This document shows positions 6,044 to 62,136 of a stretch of DNA of 64,000 nt, in pieces. The translations under genes were made by a program, and so were the position numbers. Location: assembly GCA_041648455.1 (NCBI GenBank), contig JBAZOZ010000001.1, positions 7,823 through 71,822 on the forward strand, given 5' to 3'. Numbering within the stretch: position 1 is the stretch's first letter; each line of letters begins with the position of its first letter. Origin of the DNA: Candidatus Pacearchaeota archaeon (lineage in GTDB: Archaea > Nanobdellota > Nanobdellia > Pacearchaeales > GW2011-AR1). A model generated the notes under the pieces. That model ran no database searches and was not told the DNA's origin. It was given only the letters and a program-made list of their open reading frames with translations.

Positions 6044-6307
6044 TTAATTTCTCTTATAATAAATAGCAAATACAACAATATAAAATACAGATTCTAGAAT
6101 TCCCAATATATACTTAATAACAAGTGGCGGTTGAATTATCAAAAGGGCATAAATAAGAGCAATAATATTTGCTATAAAAAAGATGATAAATAACCATATA
6201 CTTACTCCCTCAGTACTCTTCCTCTTTAAAGTTTTAACTATTTGAGGAACTAATGCAACTGAAAACAAAATTGTCGCTGTCCAGCCAAGTAATTGTGTTA
6301 ATTGCAT
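6044..6307 (-). CDS. PQ-loop / SemiSWEET-like 3-TM transporter
   Basis: 87 aa with 3 TM helices. LVPQIVKTLKRKSTEGVS matches the PQ-loop consensus (PQ..k..k.kSteGlS). Confidence 0.5.
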   Translation of the reverse strand: MQLTQLLGWTATILFSVALVPQIVKTLKRKSTEGVSIWLFIIFFIANIIALIYALLIIQPPLVIKYILGILESVFYIVVFAIYYKRN

Positions 6308-6326
6308 TGTGTAAATAAAATTTTGA

Positions 6327-7094
6327 TTAGCTGTATCCCAGTGCTCTTAATTTTTCCATTATGGTCTCTCGTGCTACCCCCCTTCCTGCTCTTTCATGCG
6401 CATTAGGATCTTTATTGATGGACGTACATTCCATACAACCTAAAGAAGTATATCCTAATTTATATAATGGATTACATTCTATTTTTTCTTGCTTAATATA
6501 TTGCATAACATCTTGCGGTCTCCAAAATAATATCGGATGAACTCTCACATGTTTCGGACTTGCTCGAGGGGAAAAAATAGTTTCTTTTGCTCTTTCCTCA
6601 TGTTCTACTCCCCTAATTCCAGTAATTAGAGCATCCAGTTTTAATTTTTCAACTCCTCTCCTCATAGGTTCTATTTTATGGTACTCACAACAGACTTCTG
6701 TAAACTCCGGAGTTTTCAATCCAAACTTATCAATAAATTTTTTTACTTTATCTTCGTCTGCCTTGAAAGTATAAAAATTTGTAAGCTCCCATTCTCTTTT
6801 TACTTTTTCCAAGAATTCATAAGTTTCTTTGTGGTCGTGCTGCGTGTCTGAAAAAAGAACAGGAAGGTCACTTGGAAATTCTTTTAAAATTAAATGCAAC
6901 AAAACTAAACTATCTGAACCACCACTAAAACCAATTCCAACGTTATTATATTTTTTCTTGGCTTCTCTAATAATTTCCAAAGATTTTTCAATTTTTTCTG
7001 AAAGGGGCAAATCCAATAACTCTCTAACTTCTGGCCTCATTAAGTCTTCACACTTTTTTGTTCTAAACTCTTTTTGAAATCTTTGTTCAATCAT
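6327..7094 (-). CDS. PAPS reductase/ATP sulfurylase-type PP-loop ATP pyrophosphatase family protein
   Basis: SGGSDS PP-loop (GIGFSGGSDSLVLLH). C-terminal Cys pair (GCMEC). Confidence 0.6.
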   Translation of the reverse strand: MIEQRFQKEFRTKKCEDLMRPEVRELLDLPLSEKIEKSLEIIREAKKKYNNVGIGFSGGSDSLVLLHLILKEFPSDLPVLFSDTQHDHKETYEFLEKVKREWELTNFYTFKADEDKVKKFIDKFGLKTPEFTEVCCEYHKIEPMRRGVEKLKLDALITGIRGVEHEERAKETIFSPRASPKHVRVHPILFWRPQDVMQYIKQEKIECNPLYKLGYTSLGCMECTSINKDPNAHERAGRGVARETIMEKLRALGYS

Positions 7095-39635: not shown

Positions 39636-40172
39636 ATGGAAAAAGAAGAATATGCAATAGTGCTAGAATATTTACTAAATGGTTATCCGCTAGAAAGAAA
39701 AATGATGCCCATAGTCCAGGCAATAGGAGAAAAGAATTTGATTCTTCTAGAATTAGTTCCGAGAAAAGGAATTTCTTTAGAAATTGGTGAAAAGGTTTAT
39801 ATAGGAGAAGGTAAGAGAGATAAAATATATTATATCCTTGGAAGACTTCATAGAGAAAAACTCACAGAGCAAGCGAAGGAACAATTACAGGAATTTATTG
39901 CAAAAACAATTAGCGAAAATGAAAAAAAATTTATTGAGTTTTATAACAAATCGGAAGCGATAAATAAGAGAGTTCATCAGATAGAATTGATTCCCGGAAT
40001 GGGTAAAAAACATATGCAAGAAATTATAAAGGAAAGAGAAAATAAGGAATTTGAAAGTTTTGACGAAATGAGAAATAGAATTCCTAATTTGCCCGACCCA
40101 GAAAAAGCAATAGAAAAAAGAATAGTACAAGAACTAATAAATATGGAGAGATTCAATCTTTTTGTAAGATAA
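39636..40172 (+). CDS. DUF655-family HhH nucleic-acid-binding protein
   Basis: EEYAIVLEYLLNGYP...PIVQAIGEKNLILLEL...ELIPGMGKKHMQEIIKERENKEFESFDEMRNRIP matches DUF655 (LDyLp.G......p.vqaiGe..f.lLE...H.LeLLPGIGkK). Confidence 0.75.
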   Translation: MEKEEYAIVLEYLLNGYPLERKMMPIVQAIGEKNLILLELVPRKGISLEIGEKVYIGEGKRDKIYYILGRLHREKLTEQAKEQLQEFIAKTISENEKKFIEFYNKSEAINKRVHQIELIPGMGKKHMQEIIKERENKEFESFDEMRNRIPNLPDPEKAIEKRIVQELINMERFNLFVR

Positions 40173-44504: not shown

Positions 44505-44602
44505 AAAAAACAAAAAGTTTTTTATCTTTTACAGAAATTTCTAATTTCTGTTCTTACAAAACAAGAAGTTTTGAAAGTAAAAACAGGAAGTTTTCAAAAT
44601 GA
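44501..44602 (+). other. 33-codon mini-ORF / repeat unit (MKKTKSFLSFTEISNFCSYKTRSFESKNRKFSK)
   Basis: TGA at 44600 overlaps the rps9 ATG at 44599. Confidence 0.4.
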
Positions 44603-45003
44603 ATGAAAAAATATTTACTTCTGGGAAAAGAAAAACTGCTGTTGCAAGGGCGAGAATTTTAGAAGGTAGTGGAAAAATTAAAATAAATAACAAAAACTAT
44701 TTATCTCTTCAAAAATTTGATAGGCTGAAGATAGAAGAACCGATAAGAATTGCGGAAAGAGTTCTTGGAAAAAAGAATTTTGATGTTTTCATAAATGTGC
44801 GTGGTGGTGGAGAAAAAAGCCAGATTGAGGCTGCTAGATTGGCTTTGGCTAGGGCAATATTAAAATATACAAATAACGACAAATTAAGAGATGCTTATAA
44901 CGATTACGATTGGTCTTTATTGGTAGCTGATGTAAGAAGAAAAGAGCCTTACAAGCCCGGAGATTCTAAAGCAAGAAGTAAAAGGCAGACGAGTTATAGA
45001 TAA
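44599..45003 (+). CDS. rps9: 30S ribosomal protein S9
   Basis: FTSGKRKTAVARARILEGSGKIKINN...RRKEPYKPGDSKARSKRQTSYR. The S9 C-terminus ends in the conserved basic tail. Confidence 0.9.
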   Translation: MNEKIFTSGKRKTAVARARILEGSGKIKINNKNYLSLQKFDRLKIEEPIRIAERVLGKKNFDVFINVRGGGEKSQIEAARLALARAILKYTNNDKLRDAYNDYDWSLLVADVRRKEPYKPGDSKARSKRQTSYR

Positions 45004-46149: not shown

Positions 46150-46686
46150 CTATAATTTTTTACTCAATCTTTCAAGTTTATTCTGAACGTGATTAAATAG
46201 GGTGGATGATACTATAGGTTGATGATTGCCGGGATGAATCATGCCGTTAAATTTTATCTTTCCTATATAGGTAAAGTTTTTTAATATTTTCTTTAATCCG
46301 TTAACCGAAAAAGTGTGTTTCTTTGCTAATTGGGTTAAACTTATATTTGTTGTGAGAAATTCTTCGAAAATCTCTTCAACTTCCCTATAGTTTTCAGCAG
46401 GAATAAGTCTCCCTTTTTCTATTTTATAGCCGAAAGGGACTCTGGACATTAATTCACCCTTCTGGGCTTTTTGAATCATCCCTTTTTTCTGGTTCTCTCC
46501 AAAAAAAACCAAGTGTTTTCTAAATGTCTCTAACATAACTCCATCAACCTTTTCATTAAGATATTCCTTAAAAGAATCTTCATTATCTGGAGCAAATTTA
46601 AAGCAAATAACACAAAGGGGGTGGTTATATTTCATTTTTGTCTCACATTCATAACCACATTTTGAACATTTTGTTTTTTCTGACAT
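46150..46686 (-). CDS. zinc-ribbon + 'Recombinase'-domain protein lacking a resolvase catalytic domain
   Basis: N-terminal CSKCGYEC...CVIC. C-terminal VPFGYKIEKGRLIPAENYREVEEIFEEFL...SLTQLAKKHTFSVNGLKKILKNFTYIGKIKFNGMIHPGNHQPIVSSTLFNHVQNKL follows the serine-recombinase 'Recombinase' (PF07508-like) pattern. Confidence 0.45.
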   Translation of the reverse strand: MSEKTKCSKCGYECETKMKYNHPLCVICFKFAPDNEDSFKEYLNEKVDGVMLETFRKHLVFFGENQKKGMIQKAQKGELMSRVPFGYKIEKGRLIPAENYREVEEIFEEFLTTNISLTQLAKKHTFSVNGLKKILKNFTYIGKIKFNGMIHPGNHQPIVSSTLFNHVQNKLERLSKKL

Positions 46687-46744
46687 TTTGAAAATTTTGT
46701 TTCTTTAATTTTGAGATATCCAAGAATTCTTAATTCTTGGTATT

Positions 46745-47608
46745 TTATACAACCTTTACCTCTTTTTTCATTAACTCATCTAATGGAGATTTTATCTTTT
46801 TTAATTCTTCTGATGATACATGAGCATAGATCTGAGTAGTGGACAAATCTGCATGTCCTAAAAGCTCTTGAATTTTCCTAATATCAACTCCATTTTCTAA
46901 GAGATGTGTTGCAAAACTATGCCTTAAAGTATGACAATGTACATCTTTTTTTATGCCTGCTTTTTTTGAAGCTTTATTTACAATCTTCTGAAGATTTCTT
47001 GAAGAAAGTTTTCCTTTTGGTCCTGTAAATAAATATTCTTGGTTTTCTTTTTTTTGTTGCACTATTTGTTTTTTCAAATCATTAGATAAGAATTCGGGTA
47101 TATTAAACATCCTATCTTTTTTTCCTTTTCCCTGCCTTATAGTTCCTATTTTCTCCTCAAAATTTAATTCTTTCATTTGTAGGTTAACAAGCTCAGAAAC
47201 ACGCAAACCAATTGCATACATTAAGGAAATCATTAGTTTAGATTTTTTATTCTCTGTAGCGTCGATAATCATAGTAATTTCCTCTTTTGTTAAAACTGTA
47301 GGTAACTTTTTTTCTCTTTTTGGACGTTTAATTCCGGCTGTTGGGTCTTTTCCTAAAACATTACCGTACGCATATTTTAGTGCAGATAAAAAAAGAATTA
47401 TAGATGTTGATGAATTATTTGAAAGATTTTCTGAAAGATAATATTTTACATCATTACTAGTAATTTCATCAGGGTTTTTGTTTACAAATTTCAAGAATCT
47501 TTCATTTGAGTTTAAATAATTTCTAAGAGTGTATGGAGAATTTTTTGATATTCTTAATTCAATCCTTGTCTTTTCTAAAAATTCGTTGGAGGTTAGCTTG
47601 TTTTCCAT
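46745..47608 (-). CDS. tyrosine recombinase / integrase (XerC/D-like)
   Basis: GLRVSELVNL (catalytic R). HCHTLRHSFATHLLENGVDIRKIQELLGHADLSTTQIYAHV (H-x-x-R ... Y). Confidence 0.85.
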   Translation of the reverse strand: MENKLTSNEFLEKTRIELRISKNSPYTLRNYLNSNERFLKFVNKNPDEITSNDVKYYLSENLSNNSSTSIILFLSALKYAYGNVLGKDPTAGIKRPKREKKLPTVLTKEEITMIIDATENKKSKLMISLMYAIGLRVSELVNLQMKELNFEEKIGTIRQGKGKKDRMFNIPEFLSNDLKKQIVQQKKENQEYLFTGPKGKLSSRNLQKIVNKASKKAGIKKDVHCHTLRHSFATHLLENGVDIRKIQELLGHADLSTTQIYAHVSSEELKKIKSPLDELMKKEVKVV

Positions 47609-48252
47609 AGATTTTTCCAGAGTTTATTTTTGAATAACTGTGAGTTTGTTTTGAATTGAATTACTTTTATTCCAATCTTCTTAGCTGGAAAAAGATTCCA
47701 TTTTTGATTATCAATAAATAAGCATTCTTTTGGGGGCAAATCTAACTTCTCTAAGATTAATTTATAGATTTTGGGATTTGGTTTTCTAATGCCAACTTCA
47801 TAAGATATAACGACCAGGTTAAATTTTTTATAGAGTTTTTTAGGCATTACTGCATTTCTTGAAATAAGCCATTGATCAGACAAAATAGCTATTTTATAAC
47901 CTATCTGTTTAAGCTTAAACGCCTGTTTGAACAGCTGTTCGTTTTGCTTAAAATTATGTCTATAGGCATCAATAATTATCTTTTCTAATTTCATTGAAGA
48001 TATTTTGTTATTTTTAGCTATTATTTTTAATGCTTTTTCTCCAGATATTTTTCCTTCTACAGCATCTGAATAGCTAGAATCAATAGAATCAAACCATTGG
48101 TCTATAGAAATATTAAGTTTCTTTGCAATATATTCATGGACTCCTTTGGTTCTTTCATGTTTTTGTTTTGGAGAAGGTTTATTTCCTAAAGCCAATACTC
48201 CACCTACATCAAAGATTACTGCCTGAATGTCTGAACTCTTTCCTCTCTTCAT
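47593..48252 (-). CDS. HAD-superfamily hydrolase
   Basis: AVIFDVGGVL (DxDx(V/T) motif I). Overlaps the integrase start by 16 nt. Confidence 0.6.
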   Translation of the reverse strand: MKRGKSSDIQAVIFDVGGVLALGNKPSPKQKHERTKGVHEYIAKKLNISIDQWFDSIDSSYSDAVEGKISGEKALKIIAKNNKISSMKLEKIIIDAYRHNFKQNEQLFKQAFKLKQIGYKIAILSDQWLISRNAVMPKKLYKKFNLVVISYEVGIRKPNPKIYKLILEKLDLPPKECLFIDNQKWNLFPAKKIGIKVIQFKTNSQLFKNKLWKNLWKTS

Positions 48253-48314
48253 AAAATGAATTGTACGAACTTGTTTAAATATGTTTTGTTAAAAATTAAA
48301 ATAAGGTGATTAAA

Positions 48315-48794
48315 TTAAAATTTATTTGAATTAAAATCAATTTTTATATCTTCAGGAAGCTTGAATCCCTTTTGTTTTAATATATCTCTTATTTCTCTTC
48401 TAAACTTGAAATCATGAATCATTTTATGATGATTTGGACAAAGTCCAATAAAATTTTCTTCTAAATTATTCTTATTATTTTCATCTAAGTGGTGCAAATC
48501 TACAATTTTATCAAACCCACAAACAACACATTTTTCTGTTATTTTTTTATAGAGTTCTGTAGAAATATTATGTCTTTTATTTCTAGACCAATCTTTATTT
48601 TTCTGCAAATGAAAAACAAAATTATAGCACCCCGGACATAATCCTTTCGAATGTAATGCCATTTCTCTGCCACAGCGTTTGCAAATCATCTTTTTTGGTT
48701 TCCAAGATAATTTCCTGTAACAGTTGAAACAATATCCTTTAGCATGATGTTCTTTTTCCTTTTTGCAGCTAGGACAAATAATCTTCGCGCTCAT
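48315..48794 (-). CDS. HNH endonuclease with Cys4 zinc ribbons
   Basis: CPSCKKE...CFNCY, CKRCGRE...CPGCY, then CVVCGFDKIVDLHHLDENNKNNLEENFIGLCPNHHKMIH (HNH core). Confidence 0.7.
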   Translation of the reverse strand: MSAKIICPSCKKEKEHHAKGYCFNCYRKLSWKPKKMICKRCGREMALHSKGLCPGCYNFVFHLQKNKDWSRNKRHNISTELYKKITEKCVVCGFDKIVDLHHLDENNKNNLEENFIGLCPNHHKMIHDFKFRREIRDILKQKGFKLPEDIKIDFNSNKF

Positions 48795-48929
48795 GAATAT
48801 GAGAAAAGATTGGATTATAAAAAAAGATGTATTAATTTTGGAATAATAACGTTCGCATATAGACAAAAAGCGAATTACCGACAATACATCTTGTGCGTAG
48901 TTTTTTGTGTAGAAGTGATTTTTAGATAA

Positions 48930-49238
48930 TTATAGGGGTATTTTGCATTCTCTTATGGTATTTTCTAGTGATTCTGGTAACTTAGGTTGGGTTTGTGCAT
49001 CTTGGGATTTTCTCTTGGGAACATACTCTTCATCCTGCCAGTGATCGTTAATTTCCAATAGGCCTTCTCTCCCACTCATGAATTTTGCTAGAATTTGTGG
49101 TGAACGAGGGTGGGGTCTCTCCGCTTCTTTCTGATTAAGATATTTTATGTCTAATACCTTATATTCATCATCTGAACAAACAAAGGTACGATCCTTAATT
49201 CCTCCAAATAAAGCATAGTCTCTCAATGTTTTTACCAT
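48930..49238 (-). CDS. hypothetical protein
   Basis: 102 aa. No recognisable motif. Confidence 0.3.
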   Translation of the reverse strand: MVKTLRDYALFGGIKDRTFVCSDDEYKVLDIKYLNQKEAERPHPRSPQILAKFMSGREGLLEINDHWQDEEYVPKRKSQDAQTQPKLPESLENTIRECKIPL

Positions 49239-49327
49239 CTTTTATCCAATATTCTCGGGTTTTTAAGAATTTCTATAGAAAAATAGCTATTTTCCTCTCT
49301 TTTGTGCACATAGGTTAGGTTCATGCA

Positions 49328-49498
49328 TTAGCCAAAAGGTGATAAAAGAATATTGTTTACACTTAGTAAGCCAAGAATTCCCGCAATAACCAAATATAAT
49401 CCAACTGCATAACGAAGAAATTTTGGAAATGCTAATATCAAAATACCAACAATTATAGCTAAAATTGCAACAATATTTAAAACAACTGAAATGGCCAT
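49328..49498 (-). CDS. 56-aa two-TM mini membrane protein
   Basis: MAISVVLNIVAILAIIVGILILAF...GILGLLSVNNILLSPFG. Below the ORF-track size cutoff. Confidence 0.3.
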   Translation of the reverse strand: MAISVVLNIVAILAIIVGILILAFPKFLRYAVGLYLVIAGILGLLSVNNILLSPFG

Positions 49499-49604: not shown

Positions 49605-50534
49605 ATGTATCAACAAATTATCCCATCTAAATTTAATAATCAAATGGAAGAGCAGTTAATTAAACTTTTCCATGAGTCTGATTTACCATTACATTTTAAC
49701 AAAACTGGAAATAAGGAATTTACAAATTATCAAAGAGTTTCTTTAATCATTTTATTTCACCGAAGCAAAAAATCAATTAGGGATTTTATCGACGAGGTTT
49801 CCGAATCAAAATGGATTTCTTATCTCGGATTGAAGAAAATTCCAAAGAAAAGCACCTTGCATGATTGGTTGAAAATTTTCGACTTGAAAATAATAAGAGA
49901 AATTTGCAAGGTGCTTTTGCCGACAGAGATTAAAGTAACTGCAATCGATGGAACCGGATTTGATTCATGGCAAAGGTCGAGGCATTATGAAAAAAGAGCT
50001 GAAGAAATAAAACCTCTTCCTAAGATGCCTTATTTTAAAACATGCCTTTTTATCGACGTGGGAACAAAATCAATAATTGATTTTGAAATTGTTCTGCATC
50101 ATGAACATGATGTAAAAATGGCGGAGAGAATTTTTAAAAGAAATAAACTAGAAAATATTTGGGGGTTGGGAGATAAGGGTTTTGATTCTGAAAATTTGCA
50201 CGAAATTGCTCGTGCAAATGGAATTATATTTTATGCTCCAGTTCGAAGGATGAATAAAAGAGCATTAAGCAAAAAGAAACCAAAAGGAAAATACCGACGA
50301 GAATGTATCGAAGTTCCAGATTTTGCTGGGAAAAGAAGTTTAGTTGAAAATGTGAATTCTGTTTTAAAAAGAACGCAAATTCATTTTCTAAGAAGCAAGA
50401 AAGACATTATGAAAGAAAGAGAATTTGGCTGGCAAATTGTTTTATATAATATTAAAAGAAAAATAAAAGTTTCATCTTTAGGAAAAATTCAAACTTTTAT
50501 TTTTTGGAAATTTAGAATTTTATTTCATTCCTGA
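49605..50534 (+). CDS. DDE-type transposase (IS4/IS5-superfamily-like)
   Basis: VTAIDGTGFDS (D1), GLGDKGFDSENL (D2) and the downstream ...NSVLKRTQ region give DDE_Tnp_1-like spacing. Confidence 0.6.
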   Translation: MYQQIIPSKFNNQMEEQLIKLFHESDLPLHFNKTGNKEFTNYQRVSLIILFHRSKKSIRDFIDEVSESKWISYLGLKKIPKKSTLHDWLKIFDLKIIREICKVLLPTEIKVTAIDGTGFDSWQRSRHYEKRAEEIKPLPKMPYFKTCLFIDVGTKSIIDFEIVLHHEHDVKMAERIFKRNKLENIWGLGDKGFDSENLHEIARANGIIFYAPVRRMNKRALSKKKPKGKYRRECIEVPDFAGKRSLVENVNSVLKRTQIHFLRSKKDIMKEREFGWQIVLYNIKRKIKVSSLGKIQTFIFWKFRILFHS

Positions 50535-50722
50535 CAGAGCCTATAGGGTGTAGTTTTTGCAGTATTTTTGATTAATTTCTTTCGTTTTTGAGAAATGTTG
50601 TGCACTTAGGTTAACTTAGTTAAAATGTGGTGGAGATTGAGAATATCATTGAAATGTGTTCAGGGAGAAATTTAAGATAAAAAAGAAGTGAAAATAAAAG
50701 AGTAAGGAAAAAAAGAATGATT

Positions 50723-50890
50723 TTATCTTTTCTTTTTACTATAGTTTCTAATAAGTTTTCCTACACCTATTATAAGGACACCTATAGCAATTAACCAATC
50801 ATTGTACTGAGCAAGTTGATCAACACCTAGCAAAGGTAAGACCAAAAGGACACCAATGATTGTTACAACCCATGCCGTCAATTTTGCCAT
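50723..50890 (-). CDS. 55-aa two-TM mini membrane protein
   Basis: MAKLTAWVVTIIGVLLVLPLLGVDQLAQYNDWLIAIGVLIIGVGKLIRNYSKKKR. Confidence 0.3.
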   Translation of the reverse strand: MAKLTAWVVTIIGVLLVLPLLGVDQLAQYNDWLIAIGVLIIGVGKLIRNYSKKKR

Positions 50891-51040
50891 CTTAACACCC
50901 TCCTTTAATCCATATTAAGGGCGAGAATGGATTATAAATCTTTCCAATATTGTGCACTTAGGTTAACTAAGTATCTGTTGGATATATGTTGGAATGTGGA
51001 ATTATGTGTTGGAAAGAAAGATTTTTTATAGGTGTTTGTT

Positions 51041-51200
51041 GGTTTTATGGGTGTTTAAATTGGTGTTTAAGATTTTTATCGTCGGAAAAAAATTAATGAG
51101 ATTTATTTAATTTAAATAGTTAGCTGTATTATTTTGTTGAATTTTGTATTTTTTTAATTAAATCTCTTGGGTTTTATGGGTGTTTAATGGTGTTTAAACA
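51041..51200 (+). repeat. two ~30-nt iteron-like direct repeats GGTTTTATGGGTGTTTAA(AT)TGGTGTTTAA about 130 nt apart
   Basis: Copies at 51041-51070 and 51169-51200. TGTTGG x3 upstream (50978-51020). Confidence 0.6.
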
Positions 51201-51310
51201 GGCTGTTTTCTATATTTTTTTAGAACAAACACCCAATATTCACACACAAAAACATCGAAAAATATACAAACTGATTCAAATTCCTCGTCGATAAAAATAA
51301 TCTTCTATCG

Positions 51311-51958
51311 ATGGGCAAAAAGATTTTTAAAGTATCTTTTCTAATTGTTTATATGGTTTGGTGGCTTTTTGGGACTAAAGGAGAGGTTGAACGTGTTGAA
51401 GAAGAAACAAAAAAAGGATTTGAGTTAGTAAAAAAAGACATGAACGCCATAAGTGAATGGATTAAACACCTGGATTCTGAAAAAAATATGAATAAAAAAA
51501 ATATTGAGAGCCTAAAAGAAAGTTTGTCGTCGATAAATGAAGAAATTGAAGGTGTAAAAAATGTTCTTTCATTAATGAATGATCTAAAGCCGAGAGCTAG
51601 ATTTAAACAAAACAAACAACAACTAGATAAACAGACAGCTGTTTATGCTGTCCAAACAGCTGTCCAAACAGCTGTCCAAACACCAAATTTAGACCAATTT
51701 TCTATTACTGAACGGGCAATTATTTGGATCTTGCTAAACAATGAAATGAAATTGAGCTATGATGATTTGGCGGCGATACTTGGGAAAGAAAAATCAACTA
51801 TAAGGGGACAAATAAACAGCATAAAACAAAAAAGTGAAGGTATGTTGGAAGAACAAATAGAGAAAAATGGCAAAAAGAGAGTATTTATAGCTGAACAAGT
51901 CAGGGAAAAACTCTTAAGAAAGCAAAAAGTGAGAGTTAAAAATAATAAAAATATCTAA
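51311..51958 (+). CDS. coiled-coil / tandem-repeat / C-terminal winged-helix protein
   Basis: N-terminal TM/coiled coil. (QTAV)x3 linker encoded by a 12-nt repeat. C-terminal ERAIIWILLNNEMKLSYDDLAAILGKEKSTIRGQINSIKQK is wHTH-like. Confidence 0.5.
   Translation: MGKKIFKVSFLIVYMVWWLFGTKGEVERVEEETKKGFELVKKDMNAISEWIKHLDSEKNMNKKNIESLKESLSSINEEIEGVKNVLSLMNDLKPRARFKQNKQQLDKQTAVYAVQTAVQTAVQTPNLDQFSITERAIIWILLNNEMKLSYDDLAAILGKEKSTIRGQINSIKQKSEGMLEEQIEKNGKKRVFIAEQVREKLLRKQKVRVKNNKNI
51633..51682 (+). repeat. 12-nt tandem repeat CAAACAGCTGTC (about 3.5 copies) inside CDS
   Basis: Read directly from the sequence. Encodes AVQTAVQTAVQT. Confidence 0.8.
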
Positions 51959-54518: not shown

Positions 54519-55727
54519 ATGGCACCGAACATCGATCAAATTTTTGATTCTTTTGATAAGAATAGCGTGTTTAAAGACAAATTTATTTTACAAACAACCT
54601 ATAAACCCTCGGAAATTCCTCACCGAGATATGCAAATAAAACAAATAGCATCTATTCTCGCTCCAGTTTTGAGGGGAGAAAGAACGAGTAATTTATTTGT
54701 TTATGGAAAGACCGGAACTGGAAAAACCTTGTCAATTCAATATGTAAGAGACGAGCTTTTAAAGAGAGCAGAAAAGAATTTAGATTTTAAATTAAAAATA
54801 GAATATTTAAATTGTAAACTAAAAAAAGTTTCTGATACTGAATATAGAATTCTTGCAGAACTTATTAAAAAATTAGGAGGAAATGTTCCAATAACTGGAC
54901 TTCCCACAGAATCGGTTTATAGTAAATTTATTGAACTTATAGATAAAGAAAAACTATTATTGGTGTTAGTTTTAGATGAAATTGATCAAGCAGTTAAAAA
55001 AATTTCAGATGGTTTCTTATATAATCTTACCCGGCTTAATTCAGAGTTGTCTAAAAGTCAGATTTGTCTTGTTGGAATAAGCAATGATTTAACATTTTTA
55101 GATGAAATTGATCCAAGAATTAGGAGTTCCCTTAGTGAGGAAGAAATTGTTTTTCCTCCATATAATGCTTTACAATTACAAGATATTTTGAATAAACGGG
55201 CCAAGGAGGCATTTAAAGAGAATATTATTCAAGATGGTGTTATTGCTAAATGTGCTGCTTTTGCTGCAAGAGAGCACGGAGATGCAAGAAGAGCCTTAGA
55301 TTTATTAAGGATTGCCGGAGAATTAGCGGAGAGAGATAGTTCACCCAAAATTCTTGTAAAGCATATAGATGAAGCAAACAATAAAATTGAAAGAGATAAG
55401 ATCTTAGACGTTATTAAAACAGAGCCGAAGCAATTTCAAATAGTTTTATCTTCAATAATTCAACTTTCCGAGAAGCAAAAGGAATTAATTTTTACTGGAG
55501 ATATTTATAATCTTTATGAAGATATTTGCAGACAAAATCGGTGTGAGATTTTAACGCAAAGAAGGGTTTCAGATATAATTCAAGAATTTGATATGCTTGG
55601 AATTATTAATGTTAAAGTAATTTCAAAAGGCAGAGGAGGAAGAATGAGGGAGATTAAATTGGCCATTTCGAAAAATATTGCAGAAAAAGCTAAAGAAATT
55701 ATTAAGGATTCGTTAAATTATAGTTAA
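54519..55727 (+). CDS. cdc6: Orc1/Cdc6 replication initiator
   Basis: Walker A GKTGTGKT. Walker B LVLVLDEID. C-terminal winged helix. 402 aa. Confidence 0.9.
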   Translation: MAPNIDQIFDSFDKNSVFKDKFILQTTYKPSEIPHRDMQIKQIASILAPVLRGERTSNLFVYGKTGTGKTLSIQYVRDELLKRAEKNLDFKLKIEYLNCKLKKVSDTEYRILAELIKKLGGNVPITGLPTESVYSKFIELIDKEKLLLVLVLDEIDQAVKKISDGFLYNLTRLNSELSKSQICLVGISNDLTFLDEIDPRIRSSLSEEEIVFPPYNALQLQDILNKRAKEAFKENIIQDGVIAKCAAFAAREHGDARRALDLLRIAGELAERDSSPKILVKHIDEANNKIERDKILDVIKTEPKQFQIVLSSIIQLSEKQKELIFTGDIYNLYEDICRQNRCEILTQRRVSDIIQEFDMLGIINVKVISKGRGGRMREIKLAISKNIAEKAKEIIKDSLNYS

Positions 55728-55811: not shown

Positions 55812-57377
55812 ATGGATTCAGAAGAAATATTCAAATTTTGTTTGGAAAATGGACTCTTAGTGGACAAAGAAGTTTTAAAATTGTTCAGTGAATCAGGGGA
55901 CATAGAATCGGCTAAATTAATTATCCGAAAAATTAAAAATCATACTCAACAAAAAATAATTACAAAAAATCTTTTTTATGAAAATAAAGACAAGGTTAAT
56001 CAATTCTTTGATGATCTTCCAGAAGAAAATAGAAAAGGTTTAGAAAAATTAAAAATCAAACTTGGGTTGAGTATAGAAATTTCACGTGAAATTTCTACGA
56101 CGGAAATAAAAAAAGATGTTCAAGAAAATATAGATGGTTCTGTTAGGATCACTACAATGAATCAAAGTTTTAGCAAGAAAATTGAAGTTTCGGATTTTGT
56201 CAAATACTTTAGGGGGCGACTAAATGAAATGAAAAGTTATTTGCAGGAAAATTCTCAATTAGATGGACTCACTTCCATAAATAAAATTTCCGGAGAAAAA
56301 CAAAATTTTTCAATTATAGGGTTAGTTTATGAAAAAAGAATTACTAAAAATAAAAACATCTTGTTAGATATAGAAGATTTGACTGGAAGGGTTAAGGTTC
56401 TTATAAGTCAAAATAAAGAAGATCTTTACAAAAAGGCAGAAGATATAACTCTTGATGCGGTTTTAGGTTTTAAGGGAAGTGGGAACAGGGAAATTATCTT
56501 TGCAAATGAAATTGTTTTTCCTGATTCAATAATTCAAGAGAGAAAAAAATCTCCATTCGAAGAATATGCTTTATTTACAGGAGATTTGCACATTGGCAGT
56601 AAATTATTCATGAAAGAAAATTTTTTGAAATTTATCGATTATCTTAATGGAAAAATTCTCGATACACCTGAAGTTTCTAAAATTAAATATCTATTTATCG
56701 TTGGGGATTTGATTGCTGGTGTTGGGATTTATCCCGGGCAGGAAGAGGATTTAGAATTTCCAGATATTGAAAGACAATTTGAAGAAGCAGCAAGGATTTT
56801 GAGTAAAATAAGAAAAGATATTAAAATAATTATTTCTCCAGGCAATCACGATGCATTGAGAATTATGGAACCCCAGCCACTTTTCGACGAGAAATACGCC
56901 TGGCCACTTTATGAATTGGAAAATGTAGTTCTGACGGGAAATCCGGTTTCAGTCAATATTGGCGCCAGAAAAGGATTTAATGGATTTAATGTTTTGACTT
57001 ATCATGGTTATTCTTATCATTATTATGCAAATGTTATTCCTAAATTAATTATAGAAAAATCTGTTCATACTCCGGAAAAAATCATGGCTTATCTTTTGAA
57101 ATATCGTCATTTAGCACCTACACATTCTTCTACATTATATTTTCCTTCTGAAGAAGATCAGTTTATTATCAGAGATATTCCAGATATTTTTGTTTCTGGA
57201 CACACCCATAAAAGTGCCGTGACATATTACAATAATATTTTGATAATTTCAAGTTCCAGCTGGGAAAGTTTGACTCCCTTTCAGGAGAAGATGGGGAATC
57301 AGCCAGATTTTTGCAAGGTTCCGATGTTTAATCTTAAAACCAGGGGAATTAAGGTTTTGGATTTTGAGGGAGAATGA
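55812..57377 (+). CDS. DNA polymerase II (PolD) small subunit DP1
   Basis: Calcineurin-like phosphoesterase motifs GDLHIG, VGDLIAG, PGNHD and GHTH. 521 aa. Confidence 0.9.
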   Translation: MDSEEIFKFCLENGLLVDKEVLKLFSESGDIESAKLIIRKIKNHTQQKIITKNLFYENKDKVNQFFDDLPEENRKGLEKLKIKLGLSIEISREISTTEIKKDVQENIDGSVRITTMNQSFSKKIEVSDFVKYFRGRLNEMKSYLQENSQLDGLTSINKISGEKQNFSIIGLVYEKRITKNKNILLDIEDLTGRVKVLISQNKEDLYKKAEDITLDAVLGFKGSGNREIIFANEIVFPDSIIQERKKSPFEEYALFTGDLHIGSKLFMKENFLKFIDYLNGKILDTPEVSKIKYLFIVGDLIAGVGIYPGQEEDLEFPDIERQFEEAARILSKIRKDIKIIISPGNHDALRIMEPQPLFDEKYAWPLYELENVVLTGNPVSVNIGARKGFNGFNVLTYHGYSYHYYANVIPKLIIEKSVHTPEKIMAYLLKYRHLAPTHSSTLYFPSEEDQFIIRDIPDIFVSGHTHKSAVTYYNNILIISSSSWESLTPFQEKMGNQPDFCKVPMFNLKTRGIKVLDFEGE

Positions 57378-58665: not shown

Positions 58666-61600
58666 ATGAACACCCAAACATATTTTGAAAATATTGAAAG
58701 AGAAGTGAGAAATGTTTACGCCATTGCAGAAGAAGCTAAAAAAACCGGGCTGGACCCTGTGGATAAGGTTGAAATTCCATTGGCGATGACAATGGCTTCA
58801 AAAGTTGTTAGTTTGATTTCTACGATTTATCCCCAGATGGAAAATTCAGGAATTGACAAAAGAATTTTGGAACTTGAAAAAGAATATGGAAAATTAGATG
58901 CGACGGTTATTTTTAAAATTGCAGAAGAGGTTGCGAAACAAAAATTTTGCAAATTCTCTTCGCTGTTGGAAGCTATTGATGCCGGAATTAGAATTGGTTT
59001 TGCGTATAATACTTTAGGGGTTGTTTCTTCCCCTATTGAAGGATTCACTCAACTTAAATTAGGAAGAACTAGAGAAGGAAAAGAATATTTTATTGCTTAT
59101 TTTTCCGGGCCTATAAGGAGTGCAGGAACAACTGCATCTTGCTTGGTTTTGATTTTGATAGATTATCTTCGGGAAATGTTTGGTTTTGCAAAATATGATC
59201 CGAGTGAGGAGGAAATAAAAAGATATGTTACAGAAAATGCAGATTATCATGAAAGAGTTACCAACTTGCAATATTTTCCTAGTGAAGAAGAAATAATTTT
59301 TCTTGCCAGAAATCTTCCAATTCAACTTGCTGGAGAGCCGACAGAGAAAATGGAAGTCAGTAATTACAAAAATTTGCCGAGAGTGGAGACAAATTATATT
59401 CGTGGAGGAATGTGCTTGATTTTTTCGGAAGGGCTTGCACAAAAGGCTGCGAAAGGTTTTCGACTTTTGAGCGGAGCAAAGAAAAATGGAATTAGTTCTA
59501 CTGGTTTTGATTTTTTACAAGAGTATATTAAATTACATGAAAAAAGAAATCTTGGAAAGTTAAGTTCGGAATCTCCGACATATATAAAAGATTTAGTTGC
59601 CGGAAGACCTGTTTTCGGGCATCCTTCTAGGTCTGGAGGATTTAGATTCAGATATGGAAGAAGCAGGGTGAGTGGATTCAGTGCCACTTCTTTTCATCCA
59701 GCCACGATGGCAATTACAGATAATTTTATTGCGATTGGGACTCAATTGAAAATCGAGAAACCAACAAAAGGGTGTGCGGCAACAGTTTGTGATTCTATCG
59801 ACGGCCCAATTGTTAAATTATTTAATGGAAGTGTTAAAAAAATTAAAGATAAAGACGAGGCTAAGAAATTATACCCGGATGTCGAAGAAATTATTTATCT
59901 TGGAGATATTTTATTTCCTTTTTCCGATTTGGCAAATCGAAATGCAAAACTCATCAACCCAGGGTATGTTGAGGAGTGGTGGAATTTAGAGTTAAAAGAA
60001 AAGGGATGCGAGGAAAAAATTGATTTTTATAATATTGGGTTTGAAAAAGCAGTTGAACTGAGCAAAAAATTTGAAATACCTTTTCATCCTAATTTTATTT
60101 TTTATTGGAGCCAAATTAATAAAGAAGAATTTTTGGGGTTGATTGAATGGCTTAAATTTTCAGTTATTCGAAATGGAAAATTAATTTTTCCTTATACAAA
60201 AAACGACAAAGAAAAATATGTCTTGGGAAAAAGAGCTTTAGAGTTAATTGGAGTAGAACATATGGTTGGTATAGAAAATGTTATTGTTGACGAAGAAATT
60301 TCCAATGCCCTTTTATTTAATTTGGGAATCGATTTTAATTGTTTTAATAGCGAGGAAATTTTTCTAAAAGATTTCATTATAGAATCTAAATTTTCTTTTG
60401 ACGATGACAAAAAAGTATTAGAATTTATAAATAATTGTTGTGAACTTGAAATAAAAGACAAGGCTGGAGAATTTATAGGATCTAGGATGGGGAGACCGGA
60501 AAAGGCAAAACTTAGAAAACTTGTTGGAAGTCCGAATGTCCTTTTTCCAGTTGGTGCTGAGGGCGGAAGATTGAGGAGCTTGCAGGCTGCGTGCGAGAAA
60601 GGAAAGGTGAATGGTATTTTCCCTATTTATTTTTGTGATAAATGTAAAAAAGAAACTATATATAAAATTTGTGAAAATTGCGGTGAAAAAACAAAAAAAT
60701 TATTTTATTGTAAAACATGTGACAAAAAATCTTTAGAATCTTGCAAAGAGCATACGGGTTTAAGATATGCTAACTTAAATTTGGATATTAATTATTATTT
60801 TGAAAAAGCAATTCATGGGCTTGGTTTGTCGAGGGAGGAGGTCCCTCTTTTGATTAAGGGGGTTAGAGGAACATTTTCTGGAAATCACGTTATGGAAAAT
60901 CTTGCCAAGGGAATTTTAAGGGCGAAATATGATTTGCAAGTTAATAAAGATGGAACAATTAGATTCGATGCAACTGAATTACCTCTAAGTCATTTTAAAC
61001 CAAAAGAAATTTCAGTTAGTATTGAAAAATTGAAGGAGCTCGGATATGAAAATGATATTTATGGAAAATTATTGAAGAATGAAGAACAAATTTTGGAATT
61101 AATGCCCCATGATATTTTGCTTCCAAGTGCGAAAGAATCTCCAGATGAGAGGGCAGATCATGTTTTTATGAAAATTTCCAAGTTTGTCGACGAGGAGCTC
61201 TTGAGATTTTATAAATTAAAAAGTTTTTACAATTTGGAGAAGAGAGAAGATCTTGTTGGACAGTTGGGAGTTTGCATGGCTCCGCATAATTGTGCGGGAG
61301 TTATCTGCAGGTTTATTGGTTTTTCAAATACCCAGGGACTTTTAGCAAGTCCATACATGCATGCAGCTATTCGACGAGATTGTGACGGAGATGAAGCTGC
61401 AATAATGTTGCTTTTGGATGTTTTATTAAATTTTTCTCGAGAATTTCTTCCAGGGCATCGAGGAGGAACGCAGGACGCTCCTTTAGTTTTGAATGCAAAG
61501 ATTGACGCTGGAGAAGTTGATGATCAAATTTTGGATTGGGAATTTGTTCCTGAAGGAAATTATCCATTAGAATTATATAGAAAAGCCGAACAACGATTTC

Positions 61601-62136
61601 ATTCTTCTGAAGTTAAAATAAAAAATTGCAAATCTATTTTGAAAGAAGGAAAGAACCCGTTTGTTAATTCTGGGTTTACTCATGATACCTCTGATTTTAA
61701 TGGGGGTGTTGTTTGTTCTTCCTATAAACTTTTAGCGACGATGCAGGAAAAAGTTCAGCATCAAATGGAACTTGTTGATAAAATACGGGCAGTGGATAGT
61801 TCAGACACGGCCAGATTGATTATAGAAAGGCATTTTATTCGAGACATGAGGGGTAATTTAAGAAAATTTTCTATGCAACAATTTAGATGCGTGGCTTGCA
61901 ACGAAATTTTGAGAAGACCTCCATTAACGGGAATTTGTCCTGCATGCGGAGGAAAAATAATTTTTACAATTCACGAAGGAGGAATTAAAAAATATCTCGA
62001 GCCTGCGATAGACCTCGCTAAAAAATATCATCTTTCTAAATATATTGAACAAAGTTTAGAATTAACTAAAAGATATATTGATTCTGTTTTTGGGAAGGAA
62101 TTGGAAAAACAGGAAGCGTTGGGGAAGTGGTTTTAG
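58666..62136 (+). CDS. DNA polymerase II (PolD) large subunit DP2 (catalytic), intein-free
   Basis: 1156 aa. FSGPIRSAGTTAS block. Cys clusters CDKCKKE..CENCGEK..CKTC. C-terminal CVACNE..CPACGG. Confidence 0.95.
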   Translation: MNTQTYFENIEREVRNVYAIAEEAKKTGLDPVDKVEIPLAMTMASKVVSLISTIYPQMENSGIDKRILELEKEYGKLDATVIFKIAEEVAKQKFCKFSSLLEAIDAGIRIGFAYNTLGVVSSPIEGFTQLKLGRTREGKEYFIAYFSGPIRSAGTTASCLVLILIDYLREMFGFAKYDPSEEEIKRYVTENADYHERVTNLQYFPSEEEIIFLARNLPIQLAGEPTEKMEVSNYKNLPRVETNYIRGGMCLIFSEGLAQKAAKGFRLLSGAKKNGISSTGFDFLQEYIKLHEKRNLGKLSSESPTYIKDLVAGRPVFGHPSRSGGFRFRYGRSRVSGFSATSFHPATMAITDNFIAIGTQLKIEKPTKGCAATVCDSIDGPIVKLFNGSVKKIKDKDEAKKLYPDVEEIIYLGDILFPFSDLANRNAKLINPGYVEEWWNLELKEKGCEEKIDFYNIGFEKAVELSKKFEIPFHPNFIFYWSQINKEEFLGLIEWLKFSVIRNGKLIFPYTKNDKEKYVLGKRALELIGVEHMVGIENVIVDEEISNALLFNLGIDFNCFNSEEIFLKDFIIESKFSFDDDKKVLEFINNCCELEIKDKAGEFIGSRMGRPEKAKLRKLVGSPNVLFPVGAEGGRLRSLQAACEKGKVNGIFPIYFCDKCKKETIYKICENCGEKTKKLFYCKTCDKKSLESCKEHTGLRYANLNLDINYYFEKAIHGLGLSREEVPLLIKGVRGTFSGNHVMENLAKGILRAKYDLQVNKDGTIRFDATELPLSHFKPKEISVSIEKLKELGYENDIYGKLLKNEEQILELMPHDILLPSAKESPDERADHVFMKISKFVDEELLRFYKLKSFYNLEKREDLVGQLGVCMAPHNCAGVICRFIGFSNTQGLLASPYMHAAIRRDCDGDEAAIMLLLDVLLNFSREFLPGHRGGTQDAPLVLNAKIDAGEVDDQILDWEFVPEGNYPLELYRKAEQRFHSSEVKIKNCKSILKEGKNPFVNSGFTHDTSDFNGGVVCSSYKLLATMQEKVQHQMELVDKIRAVDSSDTARLIIERHFIRDMRGNLRKFSMQQFRCVACNEILRRPPLTGICPACGGKIIFTIHEGGIKKYLEPAIDLAKKYHLSKYIEQSLELTKRYIDSVFGKELEKQEALGKWF

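Follow-up and report, generated by a model that had tools for sequence, protein, structure and literature searches.

ZnRD, a conserved nanoarchaeal protein joining a degenerate HNH module to a serine-recombinase DNA-binding domain, encoded beside xerA

Organization of the locus

The subject of this analysis is a stretch of 64,000 nucleotides from the genome of a Candidatus Pacearchaeota archaeon (assembly GCA_041648455.1, contig JBAZOZ010000001.1, positions 7,823 to 71,822), referred to below as the window, and within it a gene on the reverse strand encoding a protein of 178 amino acids, for which we use the working name ZnRD. The gene is the last in a string that begins with a HAD-family hydrolase and continues with xerA, and it lies beside a predicted dif-like site of 11-6-11 architecture; the locus sits between a ribosomal-protein cluster and the genes for Orc1/Cdc6 and PolD, a position that is syntenic across 80 genomes (Table 1). 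ZnRD consists of a degenerate HNH zinc module, followed by the counterpart of the end of helix E with a linker, and then by a Recombinase domain (RD). A database entry 100% identical to it, from a Candidatus Pacearchaeota archaeon, carries the label “recombinase family protein,” which is misleading. Comparisons were made with 80 related loci from species-representative genomes, designated here by L numbers, and some counts are given over the 82 loci that were fetched.

Table 1. Features of the ZnRD locus in the window and of selected related loci (positions with an L number refer to that locus)
Feature	Position	Strand	Remarks
Ribosomal protein S9 gene	44599..45003	+	end of L18e-L13-S9 cluster, convergent with ZnRD gene; synteny anchor
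ZnRD coding sequence	46150..46686	-	178 aa, ATG start; open reading frame (ORF) list, Pfam PF07508
Recombinase domain	46159..46431	-	ZnRD residues 86-176; Pfam, alignment, Foldseek, hhalign
Counterpart of C-terminal half of helix E, with linker (“GENQKKGMIQKAQKGELMSRVPF”)	46432..46515	-	ZnRD residues 58-85; hhalign, tblastn, AlphaFold2
Degenerate HNH (His-Me finger) module	46591..46686	-	ZnRD residues 1-32; alignment with HNH-intact positional orthologues
Perfect 9-3-9 palindrome CCAAGAATT-CTT-AATTCTTGG	46720..46740		in 58-nt xerA-ZnRD spacer; repeat search
xerA	46745..47608	-	287 aa, complete tyrosine recombinase directly upstream, same orientation; Pfam, NCBIfam
HAD-family hydrolase	47593..48252	-	first gene of the string, overlaps xerA start; Pfam Hydrolase, HAD_2
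“P-box” GTTCGTACAAT	48260..48270	-	dif-arm-like half-site before ATG of first xerA-operon gene
ZnHNH189, double-zinc-ribbon and HNH-like protein	48315..48796	-	directly downstream of dif-like site; sub-threshold Pfam
dif-like core ACTACGCACAA-GATGTA-TTGTCGGTAAT (11-6-11)	48874..48901	-	predicted; comparison with related loci
dif-proximal CCTAAGT element	48976..48988	-	~87 nt upstream of dif-like site; candidate accessory/RD-binding site (inferred)
Degenerate oriented repeat (AACCTATGTGCAC)	49304..49316	-	
Oriented “cassette repeat” CTAAGTTAACCTAAGTGCACAA	50598..50619	-	
Oriented “cassette repeat” CTTAGTTAACCTAAGTGCACAA	50950..50971	-	72 nt upstream of 56-aa membrane-protein ORF
Orc1/Cdc6 gene	54519-55727		beyond AAACAG-motif region
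PolD DP1/DP2 genes	55812-57377, 58666-62136		after Orc1/Cdc6
dif-like sites, examples	L028:2757-2786, L046:3671-3700, L065:5051-5080, L066:5033-5062, L082:3674-3703		
ZnHNH189 homologues	L034:1922-2377, L035:1452-1973, L044:1291-1764, L067:104-568, L073:3867-4304		
TATA box and palindrome, then CCCTAAGT half-site before ribosome-binding site	L012:3436-3490, L082:3724-3780 (type A); L070:1640-1710, L009:60-150 (type B)		upstream of small serine-recombinase genes
Swap segments	L082:3701-4855 versus L028:2784-3895; L070:1517-2461 versus L066:4958-5939; L007:4015-5810		

The recombinase domain of ZnRD

An earlier note on this DNA, made from the letters and a list of ORFs, had described a Recombinase domain at the C-terminus of the protein and the absence of a domain bearing the serine nucleophile, and both observations were borne out. 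Pfam model PF07508 matches residues 116-172 with 33.3 bits (E 6e-8; gathering cut-off 21.1), and the NCBIfam models XisF, CcrB and CcrC match weakly, the aligned portion being the post-catalytic part of those enzymes. A model of ZnRD was calculated with AlphaFold2 (AF2) from an alignment of 24 homologues (mean predicted local distance difference test score, pLDDT, 91.2) and compared with known structures, as the note had proposed; the top PDB matches in Foldseek were complexes of the C-terminal domain of Listeria innocua (LI) integrase with attP, 4KIS and 6DNW (probability 1.0; E 2e-6 to 9e-6; TM-score relative to the query, TMq, 0.52-0.57; root-mean-square deviation 1.9-3.4 Å over ~120 residues), with Bxb1, PhiC31 and other large serine recombinases (LSRs) ranking behind. 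The relationship to LSRs was detected by the fold search only; a family-profile sequence search of the PDB gave no match at E up to 0.01.

Profile-profile alignment (hhalign) of the ZnRD family with the small serine recombinases encoded at related loci gave a probability of 99.9% (E 3.6e-36) and paired ZnRD residues ~58-176 with recombinase residues ~137-252, a segment comprising the second half of helix E and, after it, the linker and RD; tblastn agrees with this assignment, and the AF2 model has a helix at residues 64-75. Across 24 diverse homologues 48 residues are invariant, the RD helix motif included, and the invariant motifs of the RD read “SVNGLKKIL-N--Y-GK-KF” and “LFNHVQN.”

The Resolvase catalytic domain (PF00239) gave no match in ZnRD, and tblastn with two serine-recombinase queries found no such domain throughout the 64-kb window, the matches starting at helix E. 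Of the two Pfam models named in the earlier note, PF07508 matched as described and PF13408, the zinc ribbon/coiled coil C-terminal to the RD, gave no match at E up to 1; ZnRD ends 2-6 residues past the RD. A fused resolvase domain concealed upstream or by a frameshift, which the note had raised as a possibility, was ruled out by the 58 nt that separate the xerA stop codon from the ZnRD ATG together with the negative tblastn result. Residues ~86-176 therefore have the fold, and belong to the sequence family, of the RD in the LI prophage integrase, preceded as in LSRs by the end of helix E and a linker, whereas the Ser catalytic domain and the zinc ribbon/coiled coil that follows the RD in LSRs are both lacking, and a degenerate HNH module stands at the N-terminus instead.

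The N-terminal module

The Cys4 ribbon recognized in the earlier note is real insofar as four cysteines (C7, C10, C25 and C28) are invariant in the 24 diverse homologues; the initial assignment as a generic zinc ribbon gave way to that of a degenerate HNH module once positional orthologues had been aligned and remains of an HNH active site became apparent. In seven loci (L051, L056, L065, L066, L067, L070, and L081) the same position is occupied by a gene of 210-225 amino acids whose product matches Pfam HNH, N-terminal to the RD, with 32-46 bits (cut-off 21.4), and one of these HNH-intact orthologues matches the HNH domain of IscB (9k2z, E 5e-5). They share 51-55% identity with ZnRD, and their motif C-x2-C...ELE(V/I)HH...NL..LC-x2-CH aligns with both CxxC pairs of ZnRD, in which the ~18-residue “ELEvHH” segment bearing the catalytic His is missing and the terminal C-x2-C-H has become C-x2-C-F. 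ZnRD itself gives no match to Pfam HNH. The features of HNH endonucleases that it retains are the two CxxC zinc-knuckle pairs framing a predicted beta-beta-alpha element (in the AF2 model, a beta-hairpin at residues 17-24 with strands 17-19 and 22-24, and a helix at 26-31), and those that it has lost are the catalytic His at the end of beta-1 and the metal-binding His/Asn of the helix. Because the CxxC pairs align with those of the HNH-intact orthologues and the segment with the catalytic His has been deleted, the Cys4 ribbon is best described as a nuclease-dead HNH module.

The nuclease motif is gone in at least 65 of the 80 loci, and a third form of ~140-150 amino acids, found in ~10 loci, has a short coiled coil in place of the N-terminus. 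Given the deletion of the HNH active site, ZnRD and most of its relatives are predicted to be no longer able to cut DNA, with the four zinc-binding Cys residues retained. Judging from these alignments, ZnRD descends from a fusion in which an HNH endonuclease was joined to the DNA-targeting portion of a small serine recombinase (helix E end, linker and RD). The RD is a shuffled DNA-targeting module in the Nanoarchaeota lineage, where it is found on a Ser-recombinase core, on an HNH nuclease, on a dead HNH, or on a coiled coil. The HNH (His-Me finger) family is known to include catalytically inactive derivatives with a structural or binding role (PMC5714182). What is new in ZnRD is the domain combination, whereas the RD as a DNA-binding module and the inactivated His-Me finger are both known; neither an HNH-Recombinase-domain fusion nor the ZnRD family is described in the literature that we searched.

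Distribution and selection

The search for homologues of ZnRD returned 1817, the best 120 listed being 162-197 amino acids long and 61-88% identical to it; clustering at 50% shows that the family proper is tight and that the remoter matches are ordinary serine recombinases. Homologues are present in at least 247 species genomes, nearly all of them labelled Pacearchaeota, Woesearchaeota or Nanoarchaeota, and ZnRD is a conserved chromosomal protein specific to this one lineage (Nanoarchaeota of the Pacearchaeota/Woesearchaeota type). The ratio of non-synonymous to synonymous substitution rates (dN/dS), from pairs with unsaturated dS, is 0.03-0.10 for the whole protein, 0.03-0.17 for the Zn module and 0.02-0.09 for the RD; both parts are under strong purifying selection, which, over at least 247 species genomes, argues that ZnRD is not a decaying remnant. 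The earlier suggestion of a remnant of domain shuffling is hence right as to the shuffling, which joined an HNH module to a serine-recombinase helix E and RD, and wrong as to the remnant. No member of the family was found in the IMG/VR viral contigs, and on that ground a viral or mobile origin was rejected.

Some records under bacterial names (L021, labelled Patescibacteria; L039, Bacillota; L072, “bacterium”; and P0104) have the archaeal L18e-L13-S9 order together with XerA and ZnRD, and their bacterial labels probably result from mis-binning or mislabelling. At L077:6001-6722 the ZnRD match spans 713 nt, with 18 stops in the straight translation, and a separate 142-aa ORF (6294-6722) covers the RD; the N-terminus at this locus may be disrupted or rearranged.

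Gene neighbourhood

The gene upstream of ZnRD is, as the earlier note had it, a complete tyrosine recombinase: its product matches Phage_integrase with 158 bits and has a SAM-like N-domain (Pfam), and it passes the NCBIfam equivalog model recomb_XerA_Arch (NF040815) with 243.9 bits against a cut-off of 220. With this match and a predicted 11-6-11 dif-type site nearby, the neighbour is, as far as its sequence tells, the chromosomal resolvase XerA and not a mobile-element integrase. A xerA gene stands upstream of the ZnRD gene in 41 loci besides the window, and a recombinase with Resolvase domain and RD takes its place in ~21 loci; within the upstream sequence available, no locus has both. The ZnRD start overlaps the xerA stop or lies at most 3 nt from it in 19 of the 41 XerA-type loci, three ZnRD genes overlap a serine-recombinase gene and one lies 12 nt from it, and the HNH-intact forms directly abut a recombinase gene in all seven cases. 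The linkage to a recombinase gene that the note had pointed out is thus genuine, and it is not specific to tyrosine recombinases, as the serine recombinases of ~21 loci show.

The HAD gene belongs to the same gene string in 43 of the 82 loci. On the other side, 80 of the 82 loci have a convergent S9 gene 0-3 kb downstream of ZnRD, and L13 and L18e come after S9 wherever the contig is long enough. In a clade formed by L011, L013, L014, L021, L024, L031, and L045, which have no adjacent recombinase gene, a TATA-like box TTTTATAAAG is found ~90 nt upstream of the ZnRD gene, preceded by a conserved element TTAGAACAAGACTAAGCCTGTCC.

The dif-like site

The dif-like inverted repeat was found by comparing close locus pairs, and examples from other loci read CTTCGTACAAC-CTATA-TTGTGCGAAC and CTTCGTATAA-TGTATA-TTGTAACAAC. 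It lies 0.1-5.8 kb upstream of the gene string containing xerA, and the pattern TTCGYAYAA-N6-TTRT has 34 plus-strand matches in 30 loci, compared with 4.5 expected on both strands. The dif site of P. abyssi is ATTGGATATAA-TCGGCC-TTATATCTAAA (PMC2958812); the predicted site is built like dif and is similar to the P. abyssi sequence at the inner positions of the arms. Since the arrangement is conserved in ~30 related loci, xerA and the dif-like site appear to form one module, ~5-6 kb from the Orc1/Cdc6 gene. A half-site, AAGTTCG[TC]A[CT]AAT, recurs 5-9 nt before the operon ATG in ~30 XerA-type loci; in the window this P-box motif is matched with zero mismatches at 48251-48270 (reverse strand), and it may be an autoregulatory site for XerA.

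Directly downstream of the dif-like site is the gene that we call ZnHNH189. Its Pfam matches all fall under the gathering cut-offs (DZR_2, 24.0 bits against 27; RecA_dep_nuc, 19.3 against 26.9; HNH_2, E 0.58), and its putative HNH-like character derives from these and from a reading of its HH/HH motif. The annotated TTG start (ORF 48315-48884) overlaps the dif-like site, for which reason the ATG at 48794-48796 is the more likely start. Six loci (L004, L034, L035, L044, L067, and L073) have a homologue ahead of the xerA operon and co-oriented with it, and in all of these but L004 a dif-like site was seen just upstream of the homologue.

Oriented repeats

A 23-nt element with the consensus ACTAAGcTaACCTAAGTGcAcAA is present in one to four co-oriented copies per locus, mostly 300-500 nt apart, which are situated between the neighbourhood of Orc1/Cdc6 and the dif-like site and flank small ORFs, mostly for membrane proteins. 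Over the loci, the plus strand has 61 copies and the minus strand 3, and 58 of the former are placed 1-6 kb ahead of ZnRD; in 17 loci the last CCTAAGT lies 47-202 nt from the dif-like site. The window has four matches to AMCCTAAGTKMAC (0.29 expected in 64 kb), all on the reverse strand between 48976 and 50964 and confined to the ZnRD/xerA locus. The layout of the array, ending as it does at the dif-like site, is reminiscent of a gene-cassette array. ZnRD shares its recognition helix with the type-A serine recombinases described below and is the only RD protein in XerA-type loci, which makes it the obvious candidate there for reading the CCTAAGT repeats; by this analogy it probably recognizes them.

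Repeat arrays elsewhere include L007:3012/3408/3824, L061:3159/3635/4095, and L077:4234/4605/4931. A transposase of the insertion-sequence DDE type (49605-50534, forward strand; DDE_Tnp_1, 50.9 bits) is inserted within the array of the window, with a 56-aa membrane-protein ORF on either side (50720-50890 and 49328-49498), the two being paralogous. When viral contigs were searched with a 16-mer of the repeat, a single match turned up, which says little, given the number roughly estimated to arise by chance in so large a collection.

Small serine recombinases in place of xerA

The serine recombinases of related loci are ~250 amino acids long, consist of a Resolvase and a Recombinase domain, and occupy the slot directly upstream of the ZnRD gene. 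They are the closest relatives of ZnRD in the RD (for example L012:4452-5210 and L081:4596-5345), with 35-53% identity in this domain overall and 45-53% for those of type A. Type A has the near-invariant helix motif of ZnRD, ..GLKK(I/L)L.N.TY.GK.KF, whereas the helix of type B differs; many of the serine recombinases that replace xerA share this recognition-helix motif. Known from sequence alone, these enzymes have an intact catalytic domain (RVSTxxQ), and ZnRD has none.

Upstream of the type-A genes a palindrome, ACTTAGGG-CA-CCCTAAGT, overlaps the promoter of the recombinase gene and again contains the CCTAAGT heptamer, and a half-site precedes the ribosome-binding site; upstream of the type-B genes the palindrome is TAAGGG-AA-CCCTTA. 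This layout resembles the res-type sites of autoregulated resolvases. As xerA likewise has in front of it a half-site corresponding to the dif arm, the palindromes would most simply be the recombinases' own sites. In L009 (861-1541) and L075 (2117-2770) a paralogous HNH-intact HNH-RD gene overlaps the 3′ end of the type-B recombinase gene, forming a recombinase and nuclease pair, and is additional to the ZnRD gene farther downstream.

Close pairs of loci document the exchange of one recombinase for another. L028, with xerA, and L082, with a type-A recombinase, are ~78% identical in DNA and collinear save for the segment from the dif-like site to the last ~45 nt of xerA, and L082 retains this ~45-nt 3′ remnant of xerA after the stop codon of its recombinase. 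The same difference separates L066 (xerA) from L070 (type B), and in L007, too, the 3′ end of xerA survives as a remnant. In a neighbour-joining tree of S9 and L13, which is poorly resolved and was used for this purpose only, XerA-type and serine-recombinase-type loci are interspersed. The swapped pairs, the xerA remnants and the interspersion together lead us to conclude that serine-recombinase cassettes have repeatedly taken the exact place of xerA, with the HNH-RD/ZnRD gene remaining.

Other features of the window

The palindrome in the spacer between xerA and ZnRD (46720-46740) is a candidate operator or hairpin; it is not conserved in the other loci. A second tyrosine recombinase suspected at 39636-39977 proved spurious (tblastn E 0.024), the ORF sitting at the position of DUF655 in the ribosomal cluster of L001. 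GC skew tracks the coding strand, and the origin was not located by it. Motifs of the family AAACAG(C)CTGTTT / TTAAACACC cluster at 51020-51215, which is non-coding, and at 51654-51682, inside ORF 51311-51958, and such motifs are found 2-4 kb upstream of the ZnRD gene in most loci. The AAACAGCTGTTT motifs were considered as binding sites for ZnRD and set aside: one cluster codes for a QTAV low-complexity linker, in tandem 12-mers, of a conserved 215-aa protein, and matches within the HAD and RD genes arise by coincidence from coding sequence (QLFEQ/QLFKQ). The non-coding copies of the AAACAG-type motifs adjoin the Orc1/Cdc6 region and for that reason look like origin or operator elements, and they may be origin elements resembling origin recognition boxes (ORB-like) or operators.

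A proposed role and its alternatives

Taken at the level of its parts, ZnRD is a conserved relic, with DNA binding predicted, of a site-specific nuclease built on the DNA-binding domain of a serine recombinase. As to its present role, we tentatively favour the view, held at somewhat under even confidence, that it is a sequence-specific, non-catalytic DNA-binding subunit with an accessory or regulatory function in the xerA/serine-recombinase module; archaeal Xer recombination may have a helper protein in it. ZnRD would bind CCTAAGT-type sites as a non-catalytic subunit. Such candidate sites flank the dif-like site on one side at a distance of 47-200 nt, closely precede the serine-recombinase genes found in place of xerA, and recur in the oriented array farther upstream. 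Bound there, it would help to assemble or to restrict the synapses of XerA or of the serine recombinase, and it might also repress adjacent promoters; the HNH-intact orthologues would cut or nick at the same kind of site. The earlier note had offered an accessory or a directionality factor, and the accessory DNA-binding role is the part of that proposal which fits best.

Several points weigh against this proposal. That ZnRD binds DNA, which motif it recognizes, and that it affects recombination are all inferred, and the dif-like site is itself a prediction. The CCTAAGT repeats are assigned to the RD by analogy, from the helix shared with type-A recombinases and the sites upstream of type-A genes, and a CCCTAAGT half-site also precedes the ribosome-binding site of type-B genes despite their different RD helix, an observation that can be read either way. 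The XerA of P. abyssi recombines dif in vitro without a partner (PMC2958812). Some nine loci with at least 5 kb of upstream sequence have no recombinase gene within 5-6 kb, and in recombinase-less loci the ZnRD gene has its own TATA-like promoter; in view of such loci, and of the frequent presence of the HAD gene, the synteny may in part be gene order inherited in a region, close to Orc1/Cdc6 and the ribosomal cluster, that rearranges slowly. Moreover, every locus was selected for containing ZnRD, so that the comparison is one without a negative control.

ZnRD could instead be a local transcription factor, a helix-turn-helix repressor or activator at the CCTAAGT repeats ahead of the small membrane-protein and recombinase genes, with no part in strand exchange or synapsis; we consider this reading, the chief rival, unlikely but deserving of serious attention. 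Small co-oriented ORFs begin 70-120 nt past the repeats, TATA-like boxes are found next to them, CCCTAAGT half-sites stand between the TATA box and the ribosome-binding site of serine-recombinase genes, some loci combine an own ZnRD promoter with the absence of an adjacent recombinase gene, and a homologue is named “sigma subunit” in one JGI record. The spacing from repeat to TATA box is not fixed, however, and conservation ends 13 nt past the core; the components of ZnRD come from a nuclease and a recombinase, and the genes to which its own is translationally abutted encode recombinases of two unrelated families. Autoregulation is also known for resolvases and Xis-type proteins, and a function in transcription is compatible with the accessory role rather than exclusive of it. 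The 45-53% identity to the type-A RD, the recognition-helix motif in common, the inclusion of the helix E end in the hhalign match, and the HNH-RD paralogues right after type-B genes in L009 and L075 might suggest a regulatory or dominant-negative partner of small serine recombinases, acting through occupancy of half-sites or pairing of subunits and left over in XerA-type genomes. We think this improbable: ZnRD is equally conserved in the 41 loci and the window that have xerA and no serine recombinase nearby, the xerA 3′ remnants make xerA the earlier occupant in at least two lineages, and the 64-kb window contains no resolvase domain.

That the family is a fixed and decaying free-standing HNH-RD homing endonuclease, lodged beside rpS9 without a host function, is very unlikely. 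The ZnRD gene does lie 0-20 nt from the rpS9 3′ end in many loci, and the forms are graded from an intact HNH through Cys4 only to a short coiled-coil N-terminus; yet the low dN/dS values extend to the degenerate Zn module, 48 residues are invariant among diverse members, and none of the 80 genome loci lacks the gene in its usual slot, L077 being the one possible pseudogene observed. Free-standing homing endonucleases have an active nuclease and a sporadic distribution, and ZnRD has neither, nor does it occur as viral copies in IMG/VR. Hardly credible, finally, is the specific version put forward in the earlier note, a Xis-like recombination directionality factor for the tyrosine integrase of a mobile element. 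What speaks for it is a small, predicted DNA-binding protein encoded beside a tyrosine recombinase; but that neighbour scores over the XerA equivalog threshold and is a chromosomal XerA with a dif-like site, which makes a classical excision directionality factor unlikely, the locus is chromosomal and syntenic in 80 genomes between the ribosomal cluster and Orc1/Cdc6-PolD, the search of viral contigs gave no relatives, and no att-flanked element is evident.

Relation to known systems

By its sequence ZnRD is neither an LSR nor an active HNH nuclease, and it belongs to none of the accessory families named below. The accessory proteins known for Xer recombination are ArgR, PepA and ArcA at the plasmid sites cer and psi, and FtsK at dif (PMC5357621); the cer/psi proteins, which have no homology to ZnRD, provide the working analogy of a non-catalytic DNA binder to one side of an 11-6-11 core, and the non-catalytic subunits at res sites are a further analogy that we would propose. 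In archaea, Orf2 and Orf3 of the haloarchaeal pleolipovirus SNJ2 are non-essential cofactors of IntSNJ2, and no others are named (PMC8371274). These are small coiled-coil and DNA-binding proteins co-transcribed with a tyrosine recombinase, comparable in this to the coiled-coil-RD variants of ZnRD, and they differ in their MarR-like folds, their viral context, and in not being universal with the integrase. The side-by-side arrangement of recombinase gene and core site also has precedents, as xerS immediately adjoins difSL and “individual xerA/dif modules” have been reported in some archaea (PMC5357621); a companion gene derived from an RD or an HNH is not described there.

Significance

The swaps between tyrosine and serine recombinases suggest that the two are functionally interchangeable in a module for chromosomal maintenance. 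To our knowledge, archaea have no FtsK and no protein is known that controls XerA/dif recombination. A partner for archaeal Xer has been postulated and none is known (PMC2958812; PMC8371274), and the original XerA paper left open the possibility of a partner binding the sequences that flank dif (PMC2958812). The ZnRD locus offers a concrete candidate for such a partner together with predicted sites, namely the dif-like core, the one-sided CCTAAGT element and the promoter half-site, and makes the question directly testable. Should the accessory role prove wrong, ZnRD would still represent a well-defined, widely conserved and misleadingly annotated family of predicted DNA-binding proteins specific to Nanoarchaeota.

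A bolder version, which we regard as rather unlikely, would make ZnRD the missing accessory or control factor that gives XerA its selectivity through the repeats beside dif, the serine recombinases with the same RD that replace xerA resolvases of chromosome dimers or cassette arrays, and the HNH-intact orthologues natural site-specific nucleases targeted by an RD. If the serine recombinases were indeed Xer-like resolvases, they would be the first serine-recombinase-based substitute for Xer. The fusion of an HNH with helix E and RD is an architecture not found in the literature searched, and its active forms could be compact, protein-guided site-specific nucleases.

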